This document shows positions 29,281 to 52,752 of a DNA stretch of 64,000 nucleotides, piece by piece (the stretch's first letter is position 1; each line of letters opens with the position of its first letter). The stretch covers positions 1,984,001-2,048,000 of the forward strand of contig OZ218778.1 of the NCBI GenBank assembly GCA_965112635.1, given 5' to 3'. Under the pieces are notes generated by a model. That model searched no databases and was not told the origin of the DNA. It saw nothing but the letters and a program-made list of their open reading frames with translations. The position numbers and the translations under genes were made by a program. Source of the stretch: an uncultured bacterium (GTDB lineage: Bacteria > Oederibacteriota > Oederibacteriia > Oederibacteriales > Oederibacteriaceae).

Positions 29281-30978
29281 ATGGAATGCAATAAGTGTGG
29301 TAAACAGATATCAGGAATTAGTTATTTCTTTAGTGCTCCTGGGGAATTATGGGAAAAATGTAGGAAGTGCGGCAAGGGCTTTTGTAAACATTGTATAAGC
29401 GTAGATAGTGAAGGTAAATATTTCTGTAATGAATGTAAAGGGATAGTCAAAATGAATGGAACTATTGAAAAAGCTAATAAGAAAATAAATCTAGCACCAC
29501 TAGGATTATTGATTCTGTTCCTAGTCATTCCGGTTGTTGCATTTATTGCCTCTTATGCAATTCAAGGGCAGCTAGATACAAATTTTCGGACCGCATTACT
29601 CAAGGATTATCCGGAGCGATCTACTGAAATATCTACATTAACGGCATCTTCTGCTTGTAGTAATCAGAAGTTTAGGGCTGCTGCGGGAGATTTTTGTGAA
29701 TTAAATGACATAATAAATTTGATGAGGCTATGCGCCATTTTTACTGCTGTTTTAGGTATCGGGCTTCTTATTATCATTAAAATTGCTGGGTTGATTACAC
29801 GTGGCAGCCGAAGATTTCTATTACTTATTTTTAAACCAGGATTACACATAACCATGTTAGCGCTGAGTTTGCTAATGATATTGAATGCTTCTTTAGGTAT
29901 TTTCGCAATATATTATGGTGAATCTGTTTTCTTAGGAAGGGTTCATGTATTTGTTATAGTTGGTTTAGGACTTGGGGCGCTGTTTGGTGTTATATCAATG
30001 TTTAAGGCGCAATTAAGTACAACCAAAAGAGCTTCGGTATTTGTTCTTGGAAAAAAACTAGAACCAGAACATCAACCGAAAATATGGGAATTTGTTAACG
30101 AACAATCAAGGCAAATGGGTGCAGAACGACCGCAGGCAATAGTTGCTGGATTAGAACCAAATTTTTATGTTACCGAAGCGGATGTTATCTGTTTGGATGG
30201 CACAATAAAAGGTAGAACAATGTATGTCTCTATGCCTCTTTGCCGTATTCTCAATGTCGAAGAAATAAAAGCAGTCCTTGATCATGAGTTAGCCCACTAC
30301 AAAGGACTTGATACTAAGTTTAGTAAAAAGTTTTATCCAATATATCGTGGGGCAACACAAGGACTTGTCAATATATCTTCAGGTTATTCAGACCATGGGG
30401 CAGCAGGTCAAATAGTATTAATGCCAGCAATGCTAACCCTGGCTTATTTTCTAAATTCTTTTTCTGTCGCAGAAAATAAAATTAGCAGAGAAAGAGAACT
30501 GGCCGCTGATAGTGAAGCGGCAAAGCATGAAGGATCTCAAAGAATAGCTACGGCTCTTGTTAAAATTCAGACATTTTCAACTATCTGGAATGTTGTGCAA
30601 CAATTAATGTGTAAATCAATTGGAGAAGGTAAAATGATAATAAATGCCAGTGAATTTTATTCAACAATAGTTCAGGACAGAGATAAAGAAAACCCTTCTA
30701 TCAATGTTTTAGAAGAAGGACCAGCCCACCCAACAGATAGTCACCCTCCACTTAATCAACGTTTTGAAAATTTAAATTTAACGTTAAATGATGTTATGAA
30801 AGATGTTGAAAATACAGCGCCGCGTAAACCCGCCATAGGTTTATTTGATAATGTTGAGACGCTAGAAAAAGAACTAACAGAAGCCGAACATATGTGGATG
30901 GTACGAACTGGTAGAGCGCAAGCCCCAGTAGAAAATCCAAATAAAGAGGAAACGGAAAATAAAATCCCCGCAAAATAA
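29281..30978 (+). CDS. M48 (HtpX-like) membrane zinc metalloprotease with N-terminal Cys-rich zinc finger
   Basis: CNKC..CRKC..FCKHC..CNEC; TM segments; AVLDHELAH; SRERELAAD; DSHPP. Confidence 0.85.
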   Translation: MECNKCGKQISGISYFFSAPGELWEKCRKCGKGFCKHCISVDSEGKYFCNECKGIVKMNGTIEKANKKINLAPLGLLILFLVIPVVAFIASYAIQGQLDTNFRTALLKDYPERSTEISTLTASSACSNQKFRAAAGDFCELNDIINLMRLCAIFTAVLGIGLLIIIKIAGLITRGSRRFLLLIFKPGLHITMLALSLLMILNASLGIFAIYYGESVFLGRVHVFVIVGLGLGALFGVISMFKAQLSTTKRASVFVLGKKLEPEHQPKIWEFVNEQSRQMGAERPQAIVAGLEPNFYVTEADVICLDGTIKGRTMYVSMPLCRILNVEEIKAVLDHELAHYKGLDTKFSKKFYPIYRGATQGLVNISSGYSDHGAAGQIVLMPAMLTLAYFLNSFSVAENKISRERELAADSEAAKHEGSQRIATALVKIQTFSTIWNVVQQLMCKSIGEGKMIINASEFYSTIVQDRDKENPSINVLEEGPAHPTDSHPPLNQRFENLNLTLNDVMKDVENTAPRKPAIGLFDNVETLEKELTEAEHMWMVRTGRAQAPVENPNKEETENKIPAK

Positions 30979-31025
30979 ATAAGTATTTTATTAATGGAAC
31001 AGAATAGTGAATGGGATAATCAAAT

Positions 31026-31934
31026 ATGATAAAAACAGATAAATACGCCCAATTGATTGAACAACTTGAGCGAGCTAGTGCATTATTAGCAGATGCTCAA
31101 AGACAACTATACGACTATAATGAAGTTATTAAAGAATACATAAATCAAAAATCTTATTCATGGAAAGATCAAATCCTTTTTGAGTATGTAGCAACAACCA
31201 TGCAGGGCAAAAAACCTGTTTGGGTGGAATTAACTGAAAAAGTCAAAACCCCAATAAATCTATTTTTGGAATTATATGAAATAATTATGAGGCATTATTA
31301 TTACAATGAACTTTTGCAGTTTTCCGAAAAAAAATCTAAATTGCTAATGCTATTTCAGAATCTTTCAAAGGCATATACTGAACTTAATTTAGATCATATA
31401 AAAGTACTAAACGACCAGTTAGGATTGTTTGGGGGTGAAATAAAAACCCGTTTAGATTGGCTAGAGGCGAATAATAGGACAGACCCTTCAAATATTTTAC
31501 CTACAGTTTTTATTTCTAAGGGGTTTTCCGAAGAGGAAAATAAATTAAATGAATTTTTTGAAGGTTATATTGAGGCTTTAAAAATAGTGTGCATTTCGGG
31601 AGAGCCCTATGATTCCTCATCAATACCTGAAAAAATCCGAAAGAGAATAGATTCTTCAGATGCTCTTATAGCAATTATACAAAAACGATATTCTTCTCAA
31701 TCTGGAACATCTGGAGCTGGTTCTGCTTGGGTAATAAGAGAAATAGAATACTCATTAGGGAAAATAAAACCAGTTATAATATTAGCTGAAAAAGGTGTTG
31801 AGACTGCCGGATTTGAGTTTGAAAAAGAAATAATATATTTTGATTTGAAGGATCAACCATTAACAACATCGTCTATAAAGAAATTGCTCCAAGCTTTAAC
31901 AAAATATGGGCTTACTGGAAAGACTACAGAGTAA
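31026..31934 (+). CDS. helical N-domain + TIR-like/nucleoside deoxyribosyltransferase-like domain protein
   Basis: VFISKGF, KIRKRIDSSDALIAII, SAWVIREIEYSLGKIKPVIILAE (conserved Glu). Confidence 0.65.
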   Translation: MIKTDKYAQLIEQLERASALLADAQRQLYDYNEVIKEYINQKSYSWKDQILFEYVATTMQGKKPVWVELTEKVKTPINLFLELYEIIMRHYYYNELLQFSEKKSKLLMLFQNLSKAYTELNLDHIKVLNDQLGLFGGEIKTRLDWLEANNRTDPSNILPTVFISKGFSEEENKLNEFFEGYIEALKIVCISGEPYDSSSIPEKIRKRIDSSDALIAIIQKRYSSQSGTSGAGSAWVIREIEYSLGKIKPVIILAEKGVETAGFEFEKEIIYFDLKDQPLTTSSIKKLLQALTKYGLTGKTTE

Positions 31935-32011
31935 ATTGGTTCAATCTAGCCCCCCATCCTCATTTCCACAATTTATCCGCCTGAAATCTTTCAAGAGATG
32001 GATAGATAGGT

Positions 32012-32770
32012 ATGCTAAAAAATAAAAAGAAATTTAATGAGAAAAAAATGATTTCATTAATAAAAGCCCTCTTGAAATCTGGCTCCAAAAAAGACCATGA
32101 GGCAGCCATGAGGAGTCTCCCAAAAAATATACAAATTGAGGTAGCAAAGAAAATAAAAATAAAGCGTCAGTTGGAAAGATTTGTATTCCTATCAGATTTG
32201 TTAAAAAAATGTGATGAATATCAACCAATAATAGCTATGGATAACAAACGTAGATCAATGGAAGATTTATATAAACTTATGCAGTATTCAAAAGAAGTTT
32301 GGACTGTTGCCTGCTCTATGTATCGAAATGGTCGGTTCGCAATAGCTAAATTTTTAGGAATTGTTTGTATGGAGGAAGTGGCCAAATATTGGATATGTGA
32401 ATTACAATTTCTATTTTCCTGGATATCTAATACAAATAACAGTACCAAATCCCAGAGGAAAACTAATACTGATAGAAACAGGAATCCTTTATTCTCACAT
32501 CGAGATAAACATCTTATTTCTGTTCTCTCCGGATTGCTTATGAATTCACGAGCCGATAGGCGTTTAGGAATAGATAATATTAATGAATTCATAAAAATTG
32601 TTGAGAATAAAAAGCTGGAATCTATTAGACAATCTTGTATCTATGCTGAATCATGTGATGGTAAGTTTTTGGTACCCCCTGAACGTCATGCTAAGCAAGA
32701 CGCAGGATTCTATATTGCATTAGCTGGTGAGATTTTATTAGCGAATTCGGGGTCGCGTCTTGACATGTGA
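32012..32770 (+). CDS. AbiV-family (HEPN-like) abortive infection protein, C-terminus apparently replaced by a repeat
   Basis: A..LGIVCMEEVAK, H.DKH, LESIRQSCIYAE pattern; last codons (SGSRLDM*) derive from the repeat at 32749. Confidence 0.65.
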   Translation: MLKNKKKFNEKKMISLIKALLKSGSKKDHEAAMRSLPKNIQIEVAKKIKIKRQLERFVFLSDLLKKCDEYQPIIAMDNKRRSMEDLYKLMQYSKEVWTVACSMYRNGRFAIAKFLGIVCMEEVAKYWICELQFLFSWISNTNNSTKSQRKTNTDRNRNPLFSHRDKHLISVLSGLLMNSRADRRLGIDNINEFIKIVENKKLESIRQSCIYAESCDGKFLVPPERHAKQDAGFYIALAGEILLANSGSRLDM

Positions 32771-32804
32771 CATTCAAAAATTGAAGGTTCAGTAATCCCC
32801 GCCT
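32749..32804 (+). repeat. 56-bp GGGGTC-REP-like element, copy 1
   Basis: Identical to 37094-37149; diverged copy split by IS110 at 37900/39263; cores at 35126, 35375, 35410 and inverted at 35466. Confidence 0.9.
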
Positions 32805-32901
32805 AATTTCGCAATTTTTCCGCCGGCGGGTTTTTAGCCCTGCCATACTTCCTAGCCAGACAATCATGGAGAGATTAAAAACAAGGAACTTCTTAAACCC
32901 C

Positions 32902-32923
32902 CGTGGTAAATTTATTTACCACG
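32902..32923. promoter_or_regulatory. 22-bp palindrome CGTGGTAAAT-TT-ATTTACCACG, copy 1
   Basis: Perfect 10-bp arms; recurs at 39398 and 39492. Confidence 0.75.
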
Positions 32924-32973
32924 ACCCCCAGCCCCCTGAAGGTCGCGCTACGCTTGCCTTCAAATGATCCCCG

Positions 32974-33035
32974 GGGTCCCTCTGTATACTTATTTATGGA
33001 AGGGACCCGTTGAAGGATCATTCAGATCCTTCAAC
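32974..33035 (+). repeat. 35-bp inverted-repeat unit + 27-bp GTTGA..TCAAC hairpin, copy 1
   Basis: GGGTCCC-N21-GGGACCC then GTTGAAGGATC-ATTCA-GATCCTTCAAC. Confidence 0.85.
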
Positions 33036-33225
33036 ACCTAGTGAAAAGGTGCCTGGTCTTCACATATAAGGTCGCCTCCCGCCTCCCCCCGACCCCTTTT
33101 CGCGATTTTTCCCCCGGCGGTTTTTTTAACCATTCGCCCCACCATCCTAAACATCAAATGCTTTAGATTCTAAATTTCCAGATTTGTCACTTTCACACTT
33201 GCGCAAACGTGGAAGTGACCTACCC

Positions 33226-33299
33226 GTTGTCCATAAGAATACTAATAGACAATAAAAATAATGACACCTATAGACAACAATATAATTGTATGCTAGATT
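33226..33299 (+). promoter_or_regulatory. putative operator and promoter of the XRE gene
   Basis: GTTGTCCATAA-N6-TAATAGACAAT inverted repeat, plus a half-site TATAGACAAC overlapping TAGACA-N17-TAGATT. Confidence 0.5.
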
Positions 33300-33330
33300 T
33301 CAGGGTATAAAGGCAGGGAGAGGATGGGGG

Positions 33331-33768
33331 ATGGTGATGGTAAAGATTATTCATGGGGCAATAAAGGATAGGGAGCTGACCAAAGAGGAACAGGAGTTGG
33401 AGTCGCAGTTGATGCGGGAAGAGGATATTTACAGACGCGTTGCGCTCAGGATAAAGATGGAGAGGAAAGAACATGGCCTGACCCTGACCCAGCTGGCAGG
33501 GAAGACAGGATTGAACCTGAGCTTCATCGGCAATATTGAGCGGTGCAACAGCAAGCCTACCCTTTATACCCTGGAAAAGATCGCGAAGGCCCTTGGGCTG
33601 GAAGTATCTGAATTATTCATGGTCACCCACAGCAATCCCACGCCAAAGAGAACCCTCCAAAAATACAGCGTAGAGGCCAGATTAAAAGAAAAGATAGGCC
33701 ATTTATTGAGCGGGAAACCGGAAAAAGAACTGAAAAAGATCCATAAAATACTCAAACTGATAGTTTGA
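33331..33768 (+). CDS. XRE-family helix-turn-helix regulator
   Basis: RIKMERKEHGLTLTQLAGKTGLNLSFIGNIERCNSKPTLYTLEKIAKALG. Confidence 0.9.
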   Translation: MVMVKIIHGAIKDRELTKEEQELESQLMREEDIYRRVALRIKMERKEHGLTLTQLAGKTGLNLSFIGNIERCNSKPTLYTLEKIAKALGLEVSELFMVTHSNPTPKRTLQKYSVEARLKEKIGHLLSGKPEKELKKIHKILKLIV

Positions 33769-33782
33769 GAGGGGGAGAGGCC

Positions 33783-35111
33783 GTGAGCGAATCAGACTTC
33801 CTTAAAAAAGAATATGGTGATTTCCTTGCCCAACATCCGCGCAAAGACGGATGGAAGGTTTACGAATGCCACGAAAGATTATCAAGAATGCTTAGTCTCT
33901 ATTATTTGCTGGATTTTATCAGAGACAAACATCCGGAAATTTTAAAAAAGCGTCATGCTCCTGCCGAGGTAAGGACAGAGGACATGATGGGAGAACCGGA
34001 TGATAGTCATCCAGTGGAAAAGGGCAATGAGTGGGATGAAACCAAGGAGCTGGATGCCAACGGCTGGATAGGGGACATTGAGGTCGAGTGGACGGGGCAA
34101 CCGATCCACTACCATGCTTTTTATGTCATCGGGAAAGATCAGATGCATGGCCGTATGGGAGAGATAATTTTGGTGGCCACAAAGTCCAATGCCGCTATGA
34201 GAGATATACACCGCTCCCTGGATGAATACAGTCTATCCCGTGAAAAGAAGGAAGAAAAGACCATCCGTGTCATCAATGGACTGGGTATACCCATCCTGCC
34301 TGTGTCCTGGAATGATATTTTTCTGGGTGAGTGGCTGAAAGAGGATATCCGCTCCAATGTGGATTCATTCTTTCAGAGCAAGGAAATATATCAGGAAGTG
34401 GGTATTTCCTACCGCCGGGGATTTTTGCTGACCGGCCCGCCGGGCAACGGTAAGACCCTGACCATCAAATGCCTAGCCTATAACATCAAGGCCTCTTTTG
34501 TTACCGTGATAACCAAGGCCGAGGTGGAGGAGGGTGAGATCGAGGCAGCCTTTTATCATGCCAGCAGAATGGCGCCCGCAGTGATCGTGTTCGAGGACTT
34601 GGACCGGCTGGTCGAATCAAAGGCTGTTTCCCTGTCCCATTTTTTGAATTTGCTGGACGGGTTTAAAGTCACCGAAGGGGTTTTGGTGATCGCGACCTCC
34701 AACCATCCGGAAAAGCTGGACCAGGCCCTGCTCCACCGGCCCAGCCGGTTCGACCGTATATTCAGGTTTCCTTTGCCGGGACTGATCCAAAGACAGGCTC
34801 TCCTGGAGAAAAAGGGGGCCAGGTATTTTTCGATCGAGACGATCAAGGCAGCGGCCAAAGGTTCCAGCGGGTTTTCCATGGCCTATGTGCAGGAGATCGT
34901 TATCAACGCCCTTTTGGACTGGCATTATAACGGTAGGGGGGATGATAAGGACCGATATTTGCTGAAAAGTCTGGAAACTCTGAAAGCGCAAAGGAAAGGC
35001 GCTTCTAAATTGGATGAGGAACTGGCTGACAGGGAAAATATTGGGTTCCTGACACCGGAGGGAAGATCTTTCGGGCCTGTACTCTCCCCAGAGCTGATGC
35101 CGGTATCTTGA
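33783..35111 (+). CDS. AAA+ ATPase
   Basis: YRRGFLLTGPPGNGKT, IVFEDLD, FLNLLDG, ATSNHPEKLDQALLHRPSRFDR. Confidence 0.9.
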   Translation: MSESDFLKKEYGDFLAQHPRKDGWKVYECHERLSRMLSLYYLLDFIRDKHPEILKKRHAPAEVRTEDMMGEPDDSHPVEKGNEWDETKELDANGWIGDIEVEWTGQPIHYHAFYVIGKDQMHGRMGEIILVATKSNAAMRDIHRSLDEYSLSREKKEEKTIRVINGLGIPILPVSWNDIFLGEWLKEDIRSNVDSFFQSKEIYQEVGISYRRGFLLTGPPGNGKTLTIKCLAYNIKASFVTVITKAEVEEGEIEAAFYHASRMAPAVIVFEDLDRLVESKAVSLSHFLNLLDGFKVTEGVLVIATSNHPEKLDQALLHRPSRFDRIFRFPLPGLIQRQALLEKKGARYFSIETIKAAAKGSSGFSMAYVQEIVINALLDWHYNGRGDDKDRYLLKSLETLKAQRKGASKLDEELADRENIGFLTPEGRSFGPVLSPELMPVS

Positions 35112-35137
35112 AAGAAACGAGAATTGGGGTCGCGTCT

Positions 35138-35389
35138 TGATGTTATGAAAGCGCGCACTTCCTGGCAAGGGGTTTGATACCCTGATGCCAGAAGCAAAAC
35201 CAATCGGCAGCAACAGCTGCCACAGGGAGGCGCGTTATGGAACAGTATATCGCTTTCGATTCACACAAACACTATACCTTTGCAAGGGTTGAAACAGATA
35301 AGGGGAAGTTGGTGCAGGAGCAACGCATCCCCCATGAGAGAGGCGCCCTGAAAGAATTTCTTCAGAATAAAAACGGGGTCAAGTCTTGA
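35138..35389 (+). mobile_element. IS110-family remnant (left end + 50-aa transposase N-terminus at 35237-35389)
   Basis: MEQYIAFDSHKHYTFARVE..G....RIPHER resembles the first RuvC/DEDD motif; end TGATGTTATGAAA resembles TGATGTGATGAAA of the intact IS110. Confidence 0.7.
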
Positions 35390-35483
35390 AACTTGAAAAT
35401 AACGTCATGGGGGCCAGGTCTTGATCGGCCAGTTTTTCTTTATAAATGTCAAAAACCGTCAAAGAAAGACCTGACCCTAAAAC

Positions 35484-35762
35484 CAGGATAAATATTTGCC
35501 CACGAGTTCAATAAGCAAGTGCAACACTTAGGAGCAGGAGGGGGGAAAAAGCCTTGATCCGGGCGTGGACTGGAAAGAAATCGAACCAAGCCAGCCCGCG
35601 GTGCTGGGCGAGGGACAGCGCAGGATGTTCGGTGTCCTAAATTTGATGCTCGGCATCCCCGATTACTCCCTCCTTTTCCCCGCTCCCGGCAACGCCAACA
35701 AAGATGAACAATAATGCGTTCCCTTGTTGGCGTTGGCTGATCGCAACAGCCTTGCGAGCCTG
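35484..35762 (+). repeat. second copy of the secretin 3' end and downstream DNA
   Basis: EQEGGKSLDP..QPAVLGEGQRRMFGVLNLMLGIPDYSLLFPAPGNANKDEQ*; homologous to 27434-27746. Confidence 0.92.
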
Positions 35763-35815
35763 GTCATCCTGCCTCGGAGGATGAGGAAATTAAGTAATGA
35801 GGCTGAGTGATCCTA

Positions 35816-35860
35816 TTGACAAAAGTTTGCTATTAAGTATAATTTGTACAGAATATACAA
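35816..35860 (+). promoter_or_regulatory. TA operon promoter and operator
   Basis: TTGACA-N16-TATAAT followed by the TTGTA..TACAA inverted repeat. Confidence 0.75.
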
Positions 35861-35888
35861 AAGAGAGGGAACCAAAGGAGGCTAGGAC

Positions 35889-36152
35889 ATGACCAGTTTA
35901 ACGGCAGCGGAGGCGAGGACCCATTTTTCCGAGATCATCAATAAAGTGGCCTACGGAAAGGACAGGGTGCTCTTGACCCGGCACGGCAAGGGCCTGGCCG
36001 CCGTCATATCCATGCAGGACCTGGATGTGCTTAAAAAGCTTGAAGACAGCAGCGACCTAAGGGAGGCAGGAAAAGAACTGTTAAAAGCCAAAAACGAAAA
36101 AACAGTACCTTGGGACAAGCTAAAACCTTCGGCGGGCAAAAAAGGAAAGTAA
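35889..36152 (+). CDS. Phd/YefM family antitoxin
   Basis: AAEARTHFSEIINKVAYGKDRVLLTRHGK. Confidence 0.92.
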   Translation: MTSLTAAEARTHFSEIINKVAYGKDRVLLTRHGKGLAAVISMQDLDVLKKLEDSSDLREAGKELLKAKNEKTVPWDKLKPSAGKKGK

Positions 36153-36409
36153 TGCCTTACGCGGTCGAGTTCACTAAAAACGCGGCAAAAGCTTTCAAAA
36201 AACTACCCCACCATGTTCAGTTGGACCTGGAAAAACCCATCACCAGGTTAACCGGCAATCCGAGAGGCTGCGGTTGCGAGAAGCTTTCGGGCGAGGAAAA
36301 TCTATACAGGATTAGACAAGGTGACTACAGGATCGTTTACCAGATCAGAGATGCTGTTCTTCTTGTTCTCATTGTAAAGCTGGGTCACCGCCGGGACATT
36401 TACCGATAA
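36152..36409 (+). CDS. RelE/ParE family toxin
   Basis: YAVEFTKNAAK, NPRG.GCEKLSG..YRIRQGDYRIVY, LGHRRDIYR. Confidence 0.93.
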   Translation: MPYAVEFTKNAAKAFKKLPHHVQLDLEKPITRLTGNPRGCGCEKLSGEENLYRIRQGDYRIVYQIRDAVLLVLIVKLGHRRDIYR

Positions 36410-36421
36410 ACATCCTCCATT

Positions 36422-36522
36422 GGATGTTCGGTGTCCTAAATTTGATGCTCGGCATCCCCGACTACTCACTGCTTTTCCCTGATCCTAATCACCCCATAAC
36501 AACCGATGAGGAAACAAAATAA
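36422..36522 (+). repeat. third (shorter) copy of the secretin 3' end
   Basis: MFGVLNLMLGIPDYSLLFPDPNHPITTDEETK*. Confidence 0.88.
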
Positions 36523-36529
36523 TGAAGGT

Positions 36530-36558
36530 TTGACATGAGGGGTGAGGGGGAGGAAAAT
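36530..36558 (+). promoter_or_regulatory. repeated promoter module, copy 2
   Basis: TTGACA-N17-GAAAAT. Confidence 0.65.
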
Positions 36559-36603
36559 TAGATCATTGCTTTATGATGAAATTAAATCTGGAGGATACAA
36601 AAT

Positions 36604-37140
36604 TTGGAACATGGTGTTGATATTCTGGTCACTCTCAGCAGAGACAAGAGATACTTTGCTGGATCAATTGAAAAAGAGCGTTCTAAATTAAAAGAATATG
36701 GTGGTAGTTCGTGGCCATTACAGGGGAAAAGGCTAGGCCGAATTTTAGGACAATGGATATACTTTGTTTGTGATGGCAAATTAGGTGGAAGGGCTGAGAT
36801 AACAGGTATAACAAGAAGTCCAAAGGTTCGAGAATCCGTGGGTGGAAAGAAGTTAAAAGCAGATCAGTGGCTTCAATATAAACCACCGCTATATCTTGCA
36901 AAAAAAGTTATAAATCAAAAAGGTTTTCGGGGTTATAGATTCCTCAGTTCAAGTGAATCAAAACTTTTTAATACAGCATTTTCTGCCATTGTAAAAGCGC
37001 CTAAAAATGCTGATATCCCATATTCAGAAGATGTGTATCTGGAGGGGAAAAGGTTTCTTACAACGCATAAGAGCGTTGAGCGAAACGTGAATTGGGGTCG
37101 CGTCTTGACATGTGACATTCAAAAATTGAAGGTTCAGTAA
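36604..37140 (+). pseudogene. probable HNH (McrA-like) nuclease truncated just before the HNH domain
   Basis: YLEGKRFLTTHKSVERN is the usual lead-in to McrA-type HNH domains; the frame then runs into the 56-bp repeat at 37094. Confidence 0.5.
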
Positions 37141-37149
37141 TCCCCGCCT
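37094..37149 (+). repeat. 56-bp GGGGTC-REP-like element, copy 2
   Basis: Identical to 32749-32804. Confidence 0.9.
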
Positions 37150-37553
37150 CCCCGACCTCTTTTAAAAAATATAGGCCCTGATCATTTTCATCCTGCTTAG
37201 AATATGCTACTCCATAGCCTTCAGATTGTTCATTTCCACGTTTTCGCAATTGCGAAAATGCGAAAGTGACAATTATTGGATTTGGTAGGGAACGATAGAG
37301 CAGGGAATAAGTTCATTAAAATCGAATGCTTCGCCTCCCCCCAAGCTTCCAAAATTTCCAGCCCTAAATCTTTGCTCCTAATTGTCCTGTAGCTAATGCC
37401 TTTTTTAAGCACTTCGGCCTTTTAGCAATCGCCGTAACGCCGAAATGGATAAAAGCGGATAAAGTTTGACACCGGTATAGCAGGGGATACAATTTAAGGA
37501 AAGCGCCAGAGTGGCGCATAAGAGCATTCGACATTTTGGGAGGAGGTGAAACA

Positions 37554-37886
37554 ATGAAATTTACCAAGATACTTTTTTTAGCCCTGATCCTGGACGCTTT
37601 TAGCGGAGCGTGTTTATTGACAGCTCAGACCGCGGCTGTCAGCCCGGCTGTGGATCAGGTGACCCTCAAGGCCGATTTAGCTGCTTTGGACAAAGATTTG
37701 GCAGCGGTCAAGGCTGATATGGCCAAATTAAATGCGGATCAGGCAGCCAAAAACACCACCGCTTTTTCGGCAGATCGTATCCAGCTTAAAAAAGACAGGG
37801 CCAAGATGTATGCTGATATGAAAAAGTACAGAGCTGACGGAGGAAAGGGGTACTGGGCGGGGAAAGGCAAAGTGAACGGAAGATAA
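37554..37886 (+). CDS. small secreted Lys/Ala-rich protein, paralog of 17295-17624
   Basis: MKFTKIL..AQTAAVSP..KAD repeats; RBS GGAGG. Confidence 0.75.
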   Translation: MKFTKILFLALILDAFSGACLLTAQTAAVSPAVDQVTLKADLAALDKDLAAVKADMAKLNADQAAKNTTAFSADRIQLKKDRAKMYADMKKYRADGGKGYWAGKGKVNGR

Positions 37887-37903
37887 AAGGGGGTAAATTG
37901 GGG

Positions 37904-39262
37904 TCACCTATGAAAAAAGAAGTCAAGCCAAAAGCACACCCCAAATCCGTTCAGAACCTACAAAGGGTCTCTAGTTCCATTTAAGGACTAGGAAGCCAGT
38001 CACCTATAGATGCTCAAAGGCATATGATGAAGTAGGAACCGGTGGCACAATCACATCTTTCGGATTTAGCTGAAATAATCCTCAGCTATTCCATGACCCC
38101 GGGGTGCTCGCCGGCCTTTTCCTGCCCTAAAGCAACAAGCCTAAAAGTTTCCTTGCGTTTGAGCATATACCAAATGACTTCTAGGAGTTTTCGAGCCACA
38201 GCAACTCTTCCTGTATTGGCGCCATGTTTACTTTTAACCCGTTCAAACAAATCCTTGAACCGCCGGTCTTTCTTGATTATATGATGACTGTTTTCCACTA
38301 GGATCCATCTGAGCCATTTAGAACCTTGCTTTGTTAACCCCCCGTGTCTTTCTTTATCTGCGGATTGATAGGTTGATGGTGCCAGTCCAGCGTACGAGCA
38401 TAACTTTTTTGGATTTGGAAACCTGTCTATCTCTCCAATCTCGCTCAAAATCAGCAGGGCAGAATAGATTCCAATTCCAGGAATGCTCTGCAACATTTGG
38501 CCTTCTTCGCTTAGCTGAATCTGTTTATTTAGTTTTTTTTTGTTCTCCAACAGTTCCTTGTTTACCGCGTCAATCAACCTCAAAAATCCATTTACTTCTT
38601 CACGATAGCTCTCTCTTAATTCAAGACCGGCTAGCCACTTACGGCCTTTCTTGCCGAAAACATCGCTCATTTCATCTTCGTGGCCATCCTTCATTAAAAC
38701 CGCGTGAATCTTGCACTTTAACATTGTCCTTTGTGAGACCAGGGAGGCGCGATATCGGAGCACCTCCCTCAGGTCCCTAATTTCTCTTTTGGGAATGTAA
38801 GCGCTAGGCACCAGGTCGGCTCTGGATAAGTGGGCCAGGGTCGTACTGTCTATGGTATCCGTTTTTATTCGTGCTGAGGCGATGGCTTTCACTTTCAAGG
38901 GATGCGCTAAGGTAACTAGGGGCAGATGCTTCTCTATCGTCTCGTAAAAGAACATCCAGTTTCCGGTTGCCTCTACAACAACCTTGGTATCCCTAGGATA
39001 TTTCCCGAAAAAACTCTCCATCTCCTCCCGGTTGTTATTTACTCTCCTTTTCTCTAATACCTTTCCTTTATCATCCATCGCTACGACTTGACTGAACTTC
39101 TTGTGAAGATCTACCCCCAGATGTATACTCATTTTTGCCGCACCTCCTTAAAAGATTTGTTCCAGCCTTACGGCTGAGAACCCAGGTTCCCCAAGAACTT
39201 TGGTCCTTGAGACCCAGTATATCTTTTAGGATGTGCGGTTTTCCTTTTTCATCACATCACCT
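37904..39262 (-). mobile_element. IS110-family (IS1111-like) element inserted in a REP-like repeat
   Basis: TCACCT at both junctions (37904-37909, 39257-39262); sub-terminal IR ATGAAAAA(A/G)G; the flanks rejoin to a copy of the 56-bp repeat. Confidence 0.85.
38086..39132 (-). CDS. IS110 transposase/recombinase
   Basis: GVDLHK, VVEATG, KTDTIDS (DEDD); SIPGIG; SYAGLAPSTYQS. Confidence 0.95.
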   Translation of the reverse strand: MSIHLGVDLHKKFSQVVAMDDKGKVLEKRRVNNNREEMESFFGKYPRDTKVVVEATGNWMFFYETIEKHLPLVTLAHPLKVKAIASARIKTDTIDSTTLAHLSRADLVPSAYIPKREIRDLREVLRYRASLVSQRTMLKCKIHAVLMKDGHEDEMSDVFGKKGRKWLAGLELRESYREEVNGFLRLIDAVNKELLENKKKLNKQIQLSEEGQMLQSIPGIGIYSALLILSEIGEIDRFPNPKKLCSYAGLAPSTYQSADKERHGGLTKQGSKWLRWILVENSHHIIKKDRRFKDLFERVKSKHGANTGRVAVARKLLEVIWYMLKRKETFRLVALGQEKAGEHPGVME

Positions 39263-39393
39263 CTTGAAAATTGACATGCAAAAATTGAAGGTTCATTGAT
39301 CCCCGCCTAATTTCGCAATTTTTCCGCCTTCCTTGAATTTTTAGCCCTCCATGCCCCCCATCATACATGGGTAGATACAAATAAGTTCTTGTA

Positions 39394-39512
39394 CCCTCGT
39401 GGTAAATTTATTTACCACGAGGGGTAGTGGTCTTTTAGGTCTTTGCAACAGGGAAGTGGTAACGGTAATCATTCCATGACTTCCAGAACTCCGTGGTAAA
39501 TTTATTTACCAC
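39394..39512. promoter_or_regulatory. two further copies of the 22-bp palindrome upstream of a wHTH gene
   Basis: CCCTCGTGGTAAAT-TT-ATTTACCACGAGGG (39394-39423) and GTGGTAAAT-TT-ATTTACCAC (39493-39512). Confidence 0.75.
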
Positions 39513-39528
39513 ATGGTATATAGGTAGT

Positions 39529-39813
39529 ATGAAAAAGATCAATGTGCCCAGGAACATGATGGAGAAGCTGTTTCCCAAAGATCCGGTGTGGCGGATCATA
39601 AGGGTTTTGGATCATTATCCCAACGGGACATCGGGAAGGGAACTGGCTAAAGACAGCGAGCTTTCCCATCCTACTGTCCATACAGAATTAAAGCGCCTGA
39701 TGGACACCGGTCTGATTCAACAAAAGAAAAAGGGGTCATCCTATATCTATTCGATCGATCGCGGGCATGACCTGTATAAAAAAGTTTTCGCGCCTATTCT
39801 AAATTGGAAATAA
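39529..39813 (+). CDS. small winged-helix (ArsR/MarR-like) DNA-binding protein
   Basis: RIIRVL..SGRELAKDSELSHPTVHTELKRLMDTGLI..KKGSSYIYSI. Confidence 0.8.
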   Translation: MKKINVPRNMMEKLFPKDPVWRIIRVLDHYPNGTSGRELAKDSELSHPTVHTELKRLMDTGLIQQKKKGSSYIYSIDRGHDLYKKVFAPILNWK

Positions 39814-39912
39814 ATTTATCCGTTTTTTGGGAATTGTTGAGGCCATTGGAGAATGTTATAATCCCAGCATTTGAAGGGTTCTAAAAATAATTACCAACAA
39901 AGGAGAATGCCG

Positions 39913-40659
39913 GTGAAAAGATCATTACTAGGTTTTGTTTCCCTGGTTTTAATGCTGGCCGTGTCAGGTTGCGACATGGGTCCTTCTTTGATAATGAAAC
40001 CCCTGTTGGATCCGATAGACAGGTCGGCGATATCACCCCGGCTCTCCTCCCTGAAATTCACCAAAATTATGGTCATTCCAGCCGCGGGAACGGACAAGGT
40101 CGGGTATGAAAAAGATATTTTCCTGTTGGAAAAGGAGTTCATCACCGGCGGTTTGACGCCTTATGCCGCTACCGCTATCGGAGGGGCGTCCCTGGCCGCG
40201 AACGGGCAATCCGGCGCTGAGGCTGTCCTGGAGGTACTCAGTGTGGGCTGGGATGTGGAGGTCCGGACAGACGACAAAGAGGCAAAGGCCGCTCCCCTGG
40301 ACTCCGCGCTTATCCCGGAAACCAGGTTCTTTGTTTTTGACCGCACCAAGGGCAAGGAGTGTTTCCGAGAGGTATCGGAAAAAGAATACCAGGATTGTCA
40401 TGATGTAAAACAGGCCTTTCGTTCACCCAGGTACAGTTTTAAGGCCAGGCTGATCAGGGTCAGCGACGGCCAGGTCATGGCTCTTCTGGATATCCAGAGC
40501 CCGGCTAACTCCAACCTGAACAGGGAATTTAATTTAAACGGCTTTAATGACGAAGGGAATTATGTGTATACCAAAGGGGATTGGCTGAAAGCGGCTCAGC
40601 AGAAAACCCTAGAGCGGGTATTCCAGCTGGTGGCCAAAAAGGTTTCTGGCCGCAAATAA
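39913..40659 (+). CDS. putative lipoprotein
   Basis: Lipobox VSGC; ARLIRVSDGQV (CsgG-like C-terminal motif). Confidence 0.7.
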   Translation: MKRSLLGFVSLVLMLAVSGCDMGPSLIMKPLLDPIDRSAISPRLSSLKFTKIMVIPAAGTDKVGYEKDIFLLEKEFITGGLTPYAATAIGGASLAANGQSGAEAVLEVLSVGWDVEVRTDDKEAKAAPLDSALIPETRFFVFDRTKGKECFREVSEKEYQDCHDVKQAFRSPRYSFKARLIRVSDGQVMALLDIQSPANSNLNREFNLNGFNDEGNYVYTKGDWLKAAQQKTLERVFQLVAKKVSGRK

Positions 40660-40774
40660 TCAGGAAAAATGTTCCCGGAAACGTGAATGAGGGTCTTCAC
40701 ATATAAGATTTTCCCGCCTCCCCTATAATAAAAATCCTCGCACTAAAGTGCGAGGTGAAAAAGGAATATTCCGG

Positions 40775-40814
40775 GGGCACTTTTACATAAGTAACTATGG
40801 ATTGTGCCCGTCGA
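40775..40814 (+). repeat. 35-bp inverted-repeat unit, copy 2
   Basis: GGGCAC-N23-GTGCCC then GTCGA. Confidence 0.7.
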
Positions 40815-40864
40815 GTAGAGTAGAAGGGGATTCGAACTATTTGAGGTGTTAAAAGGAACAGAAT

Positions 40865-41644
40865 ATGAAATTTAAATTTGCTCTGGTAAATGGAGACAGG
40901 GCAGAAGCTCGGCCAGGGCTGCGAGGTACTTGCGCATTTTGCCAAAGTGAAATGATTGCTAAGTGTGGCCAAGTAAGAATTCGGCATTGGGCTCACAAAA
41001 GCAAGGCAGCATGCGATCATTGGTGGGAAAATGAAACAGAGTGGCACAGAAAATGGAAAAACTGTTTTCCTGCTGAATGGCAGGAAATAGTCCATAAAGA
41101 CACAGCCGGAGAAAAACATATTGCAGACATAAAAACAGATAAAGAATTCGTAATAGAATTTCAGCATTCTGCAATCAAATCTAGTGAAATGCGAAACCGT
41201 GAAGCTTTCTATAAAAATATGGCGTGGATTGTTGATGGGACATGCCTTAAGGGCGGCTACCTACGTTTTTGTAATGGAAAGAGTAGTCTCAGAAATTTAA
41301 TTAATGGCTTTTATCGTTCAACTTCCCCTGAAGCGTGTTTCCCTGCAAACTGGCTTACAAGTTCAGTACCAGTTTATTTTGACTTTCAGGCAGATAGCAG
41401 GATCGATGAGCTTTGGTGCCTATTTCCGGGACAAGTGGAAGGATATACTATAATTGCCTGTGTTTGGCAAAAACAATTTATAGAAGTCTCTTCAACAAAT
41501 CCTTATTTACTTCGACGTCAAGAGGATCTTTCTTCTATAGCGCAGTTTATTCGAGAAGAACGTGCAGCTATGACCCCAAAAGTAGATATCCTAGATCCAT
41601 ATATGCAACATACAAGACTATCAAGACGGAGGAGGCGTTTATGA
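40865..41644 (+). CDS. CoiA-like nuclease family protein
   Basis: CAFC..MIAKCG..HWAH..CDHWWENETEWH, HIADI, VIEFQHS. Confidence 0.8.
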   Translation: MKFKFALVNGDRAEARPGLRGTCAFCQSEMIAKCGQVRIRHWAHKSKAACDHWWENETEWHRKWKNCFPAEWQEIVHKDTAGEKHIADIKTDKEFVIEFQHSAIKSSEMRNREAFYKNMAWIVDGTCLKGGYLRFCNGKSSLRNLINGFYRSTSPEACFPANWLTSSVPVYFDFQADSRIDELWCLFPGQVEGYTIIACVWQKQFIEVSSTNPYLLRRQEDLSSIAQFIREERAAMTPKVDILDPYMQHTRLSRRRRRL

Positions 41645-41889
41645 AGAATATTGTTACAGCCATTATTTTGGGCATAAGCCTTATAATATGCGCTGCTATC
41701 TTAGGAAATACAAAAGACCGATATAAAATTGTTATGAACGAGGGGCAGCCTGGCGGTTTAATAACTTTAAAATATGATGCCGTGTCAGGAGACGCTTGGC
41801 GATTAGTTTTACCAGGAAATTACTGGGTTAAAATTCCGGACTCTGGCCAGGAATATATCGTGCCTAAGCTTAATGAAAAAAATAAGTAG
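41641..41889 (+). CDS. small membrane-anchored hypothetical protein
   Basis: N-terminal hydrophobic helix; ATGA overlap with upstream gene. Confidence 0.6.
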   Translation: MKNIVTAIILGISLIICAAILGNTKDRYKIVMNEGQPGGLITLKYDAVSGDAWRLVLPGNYWVKIPDSGQEYIVPKLNEKNK

Positions 41890-41952
41890 AAAGCAAAAGG
41901 CCGTTTGGCATAGTGTTAAATAACGTAATCGGAGTAATGAGAATGATATCCG

Positions 41953-42248
41953 GGGTCCCTCAATATACTTAATTATGGAAGGGACCCGTTGAGCAGCTCA
42001 GGGTACTACTTTATCAGGAACTAATGAAACTACCCGTTGAGTGACCGTTCAGGTCACTCAACCTTTCAGCCTGCTCAACCCGCCTCCCCTCGAAGATATT
42101 TTCCGCAATTTTTCCGCCTTTCTTTTGGCCAAGAACTACTCAGATTTGCTACTCCATAATCTTGAACCCTCACTTGTACATTGGCTGGGCATCACTACAT
42201 AAAGAAATTTTGTAGATGCCCGTTGAATTACCGTTCAGGTAATTCAAC
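41953..42248 (+). repeat. cluster of three 35-bp unit + GTTGA..TCAAC hairpin repeats (one nested)
   Basis: Units at 41953-41987, 42001-42035 and 42187-42221; hairpins 42036-42062 and 42222-42248; outer arms 41988-41996 / 42071-42079. Confidence 0.85.
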
Positions 42249-42276
42249 CAAGCGAGAAAGTGGCAGTTTTTACGGT

Positions 42277-52599: not shown

Positions 52600-52752
52600 A
52601 GCCCAACTACTGCCGTAGTTCTCAAAAAGCATTCAGCCAGCTATGCTGGCTGACCAAAGGAGTCCCCATACGGGGACTGAAAAGAGTAACCTCCTTTGGA
52701 ATCCTCTCGGAAAGGAAGCTGGTTATTGTAATAGCGCTTATGCGCTACCCCG

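Follow-up and report, generated by a model that had tools for sequence, protein, structure and literature searches.

A twin-hairpin repeat with compensated stems and filled and empty sites in an uncultured Oederibacteriota genome

The attC sites of integrons share the consensus 5'-RYYYAAC...GTTRRRY-3', and IS1397 inserts in the loops of palindromic units of E. coli. Repetitive extragenic palindromic (REP) sequences are described as single palindromes of 20-40 bp with an unpaired GT[AG]G or CGTC 0-2 nt 5' of the stem (PMC6006769; PMC3733652), whereas elements of the IS200/IS605 type transpose as single strands by "peel and paste" (PMC6006769; PMC5027513). Here, we describe a repeat that resembles several of these systems: a non-coding unit of ~62-66 nt in which an imperfect hairpin (hp1) directly abuts a perfect one (hp2). 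It occurs in a 64,000-nucleotide stretch of an uncultured bacterium of the Oederibacteriota (assembly GCA_965112635.1, contig OZ218778.1, positions 1,984,001 to 2,048,000 of the forward strand), which we call the window. Positions of five digits are those of the window and longer ones are those of the genome. The unit is real, statistically solid, structured, and lineage-restricted; as a discrete insertion, it occupies some sites while homologous ones lack it, and it fits none of the named families with which we compared it.

A first-pass annotation of the window had reported five 35-nt units followed by GT(T/C)GA, with complementary terminal arms, and three perfect 11-bp hairpins with the loop RTTCA. 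All of these are there, at the positions first reported and with the arms complementary as described (Table 1); the fixed length holds for the five window units and is not strict elsewhere, as hp1 measures 34-36 nt across this genome and 35-41 nt in the second carrier genome introduced below. The five GGG-N29-CCC-GTYGA units on the + strand compare with 0.04 expected, and none of 100 shuffles reached five. Likewise, the three hairpins GTTGA-N6-RTTCA-N6-TCAAC (33009, 42036, and 42222) compare with 0.02 expected. Each full hp2 of the genome has a GGG...CCC unit directly 5' of it, and we therefore treat the ~62-nt pair of abutting hairpins as the real unit.

Within the unit, hp1 has invariant GGG/CCC feet and 2-10 more pairs in a variable register, around an AT-rich loop that often holds TATGGAA. 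Its neighbor hp2 reads GTTGA-N5-C-RTTCA-G-N5-TCAAC, that is, an 11-bp stem and a 5-nt loop. The ends are exact (GGG...TCAAC here, GGG...TTRAC in the second genome), CC stands at -3/-2 of the left flank in 15-16 of 19 copies (CC[G/T/A]), and the base after hp2 is C in 15 of the 16 complete copies. Folded as a single strand, the unit does equally well on both strands (z from -4.5 to -7.0). A conserved mini-open reading frame (ATG GAA ... CGT TGA) was considered and dropped, being present in only 6-7 of 19 copies of this genome.

Table 1. Twin-hairpin units and parts of units in the window (score: bits against the covariance model; z: single-strand fold)
Feature	Position	Strand	Score	Details
Complete unit	32974..33035	+	84	hp1 32974-33008, GGGTCCC...GGGACCC; hp2 33009-33035, GTTGAAGGATC-ATTCA-GATCCTTCAAC; z -5.2 (+ strand), -4.5 (- strand)
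Decayed unit	40775..40846	+	34.5	hp1 40775-40809 intact; hp2 degenerate
Unit A	41953..42000	+		hp1 41953-41987 and 5' half of hp2, GTTGAGCAGCTCA, 41988-42000; interrupted by unit B
Unit B, complete, nested in hp2 of unit A	42001..42062	+	79.3	
Orphan 3' half of unit A hp2	42063..42079	+		CTTTCAGCCTGCTCAAC = C-TTTCA-GCCTGCTCAAC
Complete unit	42187..42248	+	82.5	hp1 GGGCATC..TACA/TGTA..GATGCCC; hp2 GTTGAATTACC-GTTCA-GGTAATTCAAC; z -7.0

Over 74 nt, the first unit of the window and the copy at 741184 are 94.6% identical, and the last unit is covered by a near-identical metagenome contig of 215 nt. Where hp2 would stand, the decayed unit has TCGAGTAG paired imperfectly with CTATTTGA (two G.T pairs, loop of 18 nt), and 19 nt separate its end from the ATG of a CoiA-like gene (CoiA domains by Pfam).

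As a simple pattern, the repeat is found at 16 places in the 2.876-Mb genome, and 14 of these are family members; the other two (1144169 and 2566089) lack a hairpin and resemble chance matches. A first covariance model, built on 10 copies of the window's own genome, returned 18 copies there at E <= 1.3e-5, together with two weak variants near 245.6 kb, and 30 matches in one other genome of the phylum, which belongs to a different family (G087). When the model was rebuilt on 36 copies from both genomes, the repeat was found in 2 of 99 phylum genomes, with 18 copies in the own genome and 48 in G087, and a weak match of the first model in another genome (G016, 33 bits) was not recovered; the phylum-genome searches used stricter filters, able to lose weak matches. 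The exact pattern gave one locus in 185,579 species genomes, in a cyanobacterial metagenome-assembled genome, which has no hp1 pairing, scores 18.2 bits, and is treated as chance, and none in metagenome contigs. Relaxing the pattern yielded seven loci, none of them matching the model at E <= 0.01, and phage and plasmid collections held only chance-level matches of 25-30 nt. Rfam recognized only a tRNA in the window (the best match of 41930-42270 being mir-786, E = 1.1) and nothing at E <= 0.1 in eight G087 loci, so that membership of any Rfam family, by gathering score or suggestive E-value, can be set aside.

The G087 units share the architecture of those in the own genome and differ in their stems and in the hp2 loop, which is CACAG rather than RTTCA. 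They read GGGTAG...CTACCC (35-41 nt) and then GTYAAATAGTC-CACAG-GACTATTTRAC, with a TTCA-like left flank. Two compensated variants of hp2 are abundant among them, GTCAA/TTGAC and GTTAA/TTAAC, with a few C.A intermediates.

That the stems change in a compensatory manner, as the first-pass annotation had proposed, is statistically strong. Across the 18 own-genome copies, 96.2% of pair cells hold standard pairs (77.6 +/- 1.3% in shuffles), 12 of the 18 pairs are changed on both sides, and there are 62 doubly changed cells where 17.6 would be expected; none of 500 shuffles reached these values, and sliding the partner column by 1-3 lowered pairing to 47% at most. With both genomes taken together (36 copies), pairing stands at 96.7% against 80.1% in shuffles and doubly changed cells at 114 against 31.8 expected, again with 0/500 shuffles reaching this. 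Compensated change extends even to the "constant" GTTGA/TCAAC, which becomes GTGGA/TCCAC at 234016, GTCAA/TTGAC at 1162628, and GTCAT/ATGAC at 1565167. The latter two copies are a close pair, and between them there are two compensated pair differences and no uncompensated stem change.

Evidence for insertion comes from several loci. Copy 2730110 interrupts a ~190-nt multi-hairpin repeat that is uninterrupted at that point in all five of the other aligned copies, and the filled and empty forms differ by the 62-nt unit and a 3-nt CCT ambiguity of a kind found at 3 of 16 sites. In the window, unit A might be taken as simply truncated; this is ruled out, as the two halves of its hp2 flank the inserted unit B. 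Orphan 3' halves of hp2 are found twice only in the genome, here and at 1449938, and unit B is enclosed by the inverted repeat GTTGAGCAG/CTGCTCAAC (9 bp complementary, right arm 42071-42079). A terminator-like hairpin, AACTGCGCTG...CAGCGCAGTTTTT, holds copy 234083 in its loop. More generally, the unit lies between genes, often in the loop of a terminator, of another repeat, or of another twin-hairpin copy, and 4 of 16 copies are enclosed by an inverted repeat of 8 bp or more compared with 2.9% of 5000 random positions in the same geometry. The S-R junction near the ArsR paralogs described below was considered as a further empty site and rejected because its flanks are too different to be clean.

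The copies of G087 tell the same story in a different setting. Many of its genes are preceded by a repeated leader of ~150 nt (module L), the end of which is a Shine-Dalgarno sequence with a start codon. The unit splits the loop of the module's long hairpin in three aligned copies of L, between ...ATTTTGCT and TGC..TGTTGACG; in three others, the same junction is continuous and the unit lies ~70 nt upstream, at the 5' edge of L. At these junctions the unit joins L exactly and with no duplication. Among the 20 copies read, three occupy yet another position, close to the Shine-Dalgarno sequence. The own genome has no module L, and the twin hairpin is therefore the only part common to both. With this repeat, a poorly known uncultured phylum gains a structured family that is well supported and for which the evidence of insertion is clear.

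Module L has features of its own. Its first hairpin is GTCCTCGGCC/GGCCTCGGAC, and this is followed by the long hairpin, in which the outer arms vary in concert from copy to copy, and by AAGGAGG and ATG. The genes downstream are unrelated and include those for a secreted protein, an alcohol dehydrogenase-like protein, and a Cas2-like protein. No Rfam family matches the module, which may be either a mobile promoter/leader or a regulatory RNA.

How does such a unit spread? The reading that we put forward, and to which we give an even chance of being correct, is that of a mobile element, non-autonomous and dependent on its hairpins, comparable in principle to REPs and to palindrome-associated transposable elements (PATEs), with a mobilizing enzyme that we did not find. 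An enzyme acting in trans would move the unit in the form of a folded single strand; this enzyme would read the invariant bases at the feet of the hairpins and within the hp2 loop (GGG/CCC-G-TTGA, C-RTTCA-G, and TCAAC-C) and need only pairing elsewhere. If only copies with both stems paired are propagated, selection for pairing would act at the propagation step and would give rise to compensatory variation; the two abundant compensated hp2 variants of G087, together with a few C.A intermediates, fit this. The preferred target would be unpaired DNA, for instance the hairpin loops of the lagging-strand template or of cruciforms. Once inserted, the unit would probably be co-transcribed with its neighbors, and its two stable stem-loops may, by analogy with REPs, have a secondary effect on the mRNA.

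It is worth setting the unit beside the REPs in some detail. In common with REP, BIME, and REPIN sequences, it is short, dispersed, intergenic, multi-copy, and lineage-specific, with complementary stem changes, loops of variable size able to hold self-complementary inserts, short C-rich tails, and mosaics with other repeat motifs; CGTC-type REPs, too, are without a dedicated transposase (PMC3733652; PMC6006769). The first-pass label "REP-like in principle" is thus a fair one, the more so given the filled and empty sites. The differences are nevertheless considerable. The unit consists of two unlike hairpins in fixed order over 62 nt and is not arranged as inverted dimers, and it has no unpaired tag: GTTGA is paired to TCAAC, resembling a "double foot" whose third base is T, a single copy of the 18 (234016) reads GTGG, and CGTC arises only by overlap, in three copies. 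A REP family would have one or more members within 1 kb of a gene for a RAYT (REP-associated tyrosine transposase); the unit is not found beside the RAYT-like genes of the genome.

Similarly, the likeness to IS200/IS605 elements and PATEs extends to the lack of terminal inverted repeats and of a clear target duplication, a hairpin at each end, a short preferred left-flank sequence, and perhaps a strong orientation bias with replication, which here is confounded by gene direction (PMC6006769; PMC5027513). Terminal inverted repeats are indeed absent, GGG... and ...TCAAC not being inverted copies of each other, and no target duplication is consistent (longest flanking direct repeats of 0-8 nt, no common length). 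For these reasons, and because the G087 junctions are exact, we rejected a classical miniature inverted-repeat transposable element. The hairpins of the unit are, however, terminal rather than subterminal with linkers, and unlike both each other and those of the resident IS200; its end hairpins match no resident IS200/IS605 element with a Y1 transposase.

The mobile-element reading has to face a number of points that weigh against it, and the first concerns the enzyme. Searches of both genomes returned none that could be named as the mobilizer. The own genome has five RAYT-like Y1 genes of ~280 amino acids (NF047646, 80.5 bits with a cut-off of 80), and on either side of these stands another inverted repeat, GGGGTCNNNTCTTGA, with 22 strict copies genome-wide. 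Within 1.5 kb of the six Y1 genes, the twin-hairpin model found no match better than E = 0.4, and the hairpins of the IS200 at 919.6 kb, CCGCCCAGC/GCTGGGCGG, are unlike those of the unit. G087, a 99% complete assembly with its 48 copies, has no Y1 transposase at all, and the unit can therefore not depend on one. The earlier proposal of an HUH-nuclease site thus found no backing, and compensatory variation in hairpin repeats does not require a tie to RAYT or IS200 enzymes. Retro-mobility was rejected, there being no reverse transcriptase in the genome, which also has no TnpB; a relation to CRISPR was set aside as well, the genome having no arrays.

The copies themselves supply the remaining points. 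Nearly all of those in the own genome have different stems and yet pair intact; such diversity exceeds what is usual for a recently amplified selfish family and could reflect selection acting on the individual copies where they stand, and hence a host function. Two DNA runs of peat metagenomes, which gave only short contigs, could not reveal any presence/absence polymorphism between strains, and an apparent joint of 32840 to 33181 (side 28, depth 2.5) was too weak, and lies in repeated sequence, to be used. With origin and terminus placed from GC skew, the top strand of the unit is the leading-strand sequence at 13 of 16 own-genome loci (72% for long open reading frames, p = 0.30) and at 42 of 44 in G087 (baseline 85%, p = 0.03), a bias largely accounted for by gene direction. 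Finally, 12 of 20 G087 copies lie in sense orientation within 115 nt upstream of a Shine-Dalgarno sequence and start codon compared with 1 of 20 for the other strand, and this placement also fits an RNA leader element.

The last point leads to a doubtful alternative, namely that the unit is a structured RNA module acting in cis in mRNA leaders, between genes, or in trailers, where its two stem-loops would form a binding or processing site or a block to nucleases, with spread being secondary. Besides the G087 leaders, this would account for the strong covariation and for an hp2 loop kept within each genome, and about 12 of 16 own-genome loci are co-oriented with a neighboring gene. REPs are themselves thought to work partly as RNA (PMC3733652). 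Against this stand the own-genome copies that run antisense to the flanking genes, at three or four loci (1162636, 2138858/2139500, and 2730110), and the fact that only 2 of 16 precede a Shine-Dalgarno sequence and start codon. There is no promoter signal upstream of the 19 copies, a pattern scan gave none either, and Rfam has no match. A scan for intrinsic terminators at the units was likewise empty; with C rather than a T-run (U-run in RNA) after hp2 in 15 of 16 complete copies, an intrinsic terminator was rejected as an identity for the unit.

The mismatches bear on the same question. In RNA families, G.U usually dominates among mismatches. Here, there are 11 A.C and six G.T among 637 pair cells, so that A.C outnumbers G.U on the named strand. 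That both strands fold alike and that A.C is not rarer than G.T fits DNA better than an RNA made from one strand. The evidence thus weakly favors a structure at the DNA level, with a secondary effect on mRNA being possible.

Five same-strand copies between cassette-like genes, within 9.3 kb of a defense and toxin-antitoxin island, naturally bring integrons to mind. In this view, hp2 would be a site-specific recombination site, two 10-11-bp arms around a 5-7-bp crossover region, and the sites would delimit exchangeable cassettes, as attC or plasmid dif-like modules do. A few copies look like hybrids with the break at the center of hp2: 245584 appears hybrid, with a 5' arm of the 1028477 type and a 3' part of the 2138858 type; the sisters 1449873 and 1455493 have 86 nt in common, as far as CC-A, and then diverge; and in 1449873 the arms are not complementary and there is a second 3' half. 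We nonetheless consider site-specific recombination highly improbable. The arms vary between copies and remain complementary within each, a pattern that a central crossover would destroy. No recombinase adjoins a unit, the five tyrosine recombinases of the genome being 10 kb off at the nearest and the four serine recombinases elsewhere, and the best integron integrase candidate (TIGR02249) scores 81.9 bits with a cut-off of 265. Many copies are single and adjoin housekeeping genes such as PFK and Nuo51.

The first-pass suggestion of an attC-like site fares no better on detail. The unit does share with attC a recognition that would rest on structure, one orientation between cassette-like genes in the window, and GTT/AAC at the foot of the hairpin. 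Its polarity, however, is the reverse (5'-GTTGA...TCAAC-3', compared with R''/R' of attC), and hp2 has no extrahelical bases. When annotating this island, the five copies should not be labeled as attC sites or used as integron markers. The earlier statement that the repeat could not be assigned to a known family has held up: there is no Rfam match, and the unit is neither a tagged REP nor an attC site nor a terminator.

A further alternative, also improbable in our judgment, is a host element kept in place by selection, such as a cruciform, a nucleoid-protein site, or an ArsR-type operator. Its appeal lies in the intact pairing of even highly diverged copies and in an ArsR-like subfamily of winged helix-turn-helix genes with four members (741574-741900, 744126-744443, 2139552-2139845, and 2495812-2496105), three of which lie within 400 nt of a copy; another winged helix-turn-helix gene precedes the copy at 40775. 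The side and orientation relative to the ArsR gene differ between loci, though, and most copies have no such neighbor; no consistent partner gene was found across copies. An operator read as double strand would, moreover, need constant arms and not compensated ones, and the filled and empty sites show movement.

To return to the mobile element, a stronger version of it, which we regard as tentative and rather unlikely, holds that the unit belongs to a new class of miniature transposon that depends on single-strand hairpins, is served by no Y1 or RAYT enzyme, and integrates into unpaired hairpin loops. Service by Y1 or RAYT enzymes is ruled out in this version because the unit thrives in a genome without any. 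If it were true, it would point to an undescribed mobilizing enzyme or host pathway, and it could explain why hairpins are nested within the loops of other repeats across this genome. What moves such units can be tested through the two carrier genomes, given the preference for hairpin loops and the 48 copies in a genome free of Y1 transposases. One idea on target choice was dropped: the variable stems matched their own flanks (mean 6.0) no better than those of other copies (5.84).

The nested hairpins deserve a description. Additional hairpins of 14-30 nt, with compensated stems and the loops TTGA, TCAA, ATGA, or TAAA, lie in the loops of other hairpins throughout the genome, including those of the ~190-nt repeat; examples are CATGC-TTGA-GCATG and TACCCC-CTTGA-GGGGTA, and in hp2 they are placed between A and TTCA. 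They are found at 2138763-2138866, 245584-245697, 1028382-1028485, and 1455485-1455600, and also at 616018, 1769689, 1057534, and 2726116.

Insertion elements that target hairpins offer a last comparison. IS110/IS1111 elements, with their REP or attC targets, share with the unit an insertion into palindromic repeats and hairpin loops; the unit differs in having no gene and in its diverse targets, and IS110 copies are neither in it nor flanked by it. IS110 as a user or target of the unit was rejected, as the four copies here and the three examined in G087 sit in other repeats. The window copy (37900-39276) is inserted in the middle of a repeat, between GGGGTCACC and TCTTGA, and those of G087 lie in a CCTCTCCC-loop-GGGAGAGG hairpin repeat; targeting of hairpin repeats is typical of the IS110 family.

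The window between 28 and 42 kb is the defense and toxin-antitoxin island referred to above, with ISL3, an M48 peptidase with TIR and AbiV, XRE with AAA, Phd/ParE, IS110, and the CoiA-like nuclease. A likely defense cluster occupies 29281-35111 (GC 0.35): a protein with both a zinc ribbon and an M48 peptidase, TIR-domain and AbiV/HEPN proteins, and then an XRE helix-turn-helix protein and an AAA ATPase. A paralogous pair, of ArsR and AAA, is found at 2494-2496 kb.

Several other repeats were noted. The family that flanks the RAYT-like genes, GGGGTCNNNTCTTGA(C)A...., has window copies at 32749-32772, 35126-35150, 35375-35400, and 37094-37117; several window open reading frames read into its copies at their 3' ends, and repeat and genes together look like units flanked by terminal inverted repeats or REP-associated tyrosine transposase units. 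A palindromic module, TTCGGCCATTCGGCGA followed by TCGCCGTAACGCCGAA, adjoins three twin-hairpin copies immediately at their 3' end and also occurs alone (2495629-2495721, 2139801-2139972, 1451193-1451227, and 2138749-2138783; 37412-37471 in the window). The idea that a repeat abutting the twin hairpin is a TnpB omega-RNA was rejected, and the ~190-nt repeat is likewise not one, because the genome has no TnpB. The latter, which reads tatcgg...accacgggc...gcccgtgg...CCTCTCCGAGAGG...GGGAGCCACGGGC...CCCAC, has at least 12 copies, including those at 1370674, 1769689, 704632, 603806, 1502954, 1241087, 1057534, 2726116, 1618457, 137997, and 2730048 and, in the window, at ~52674-52715.

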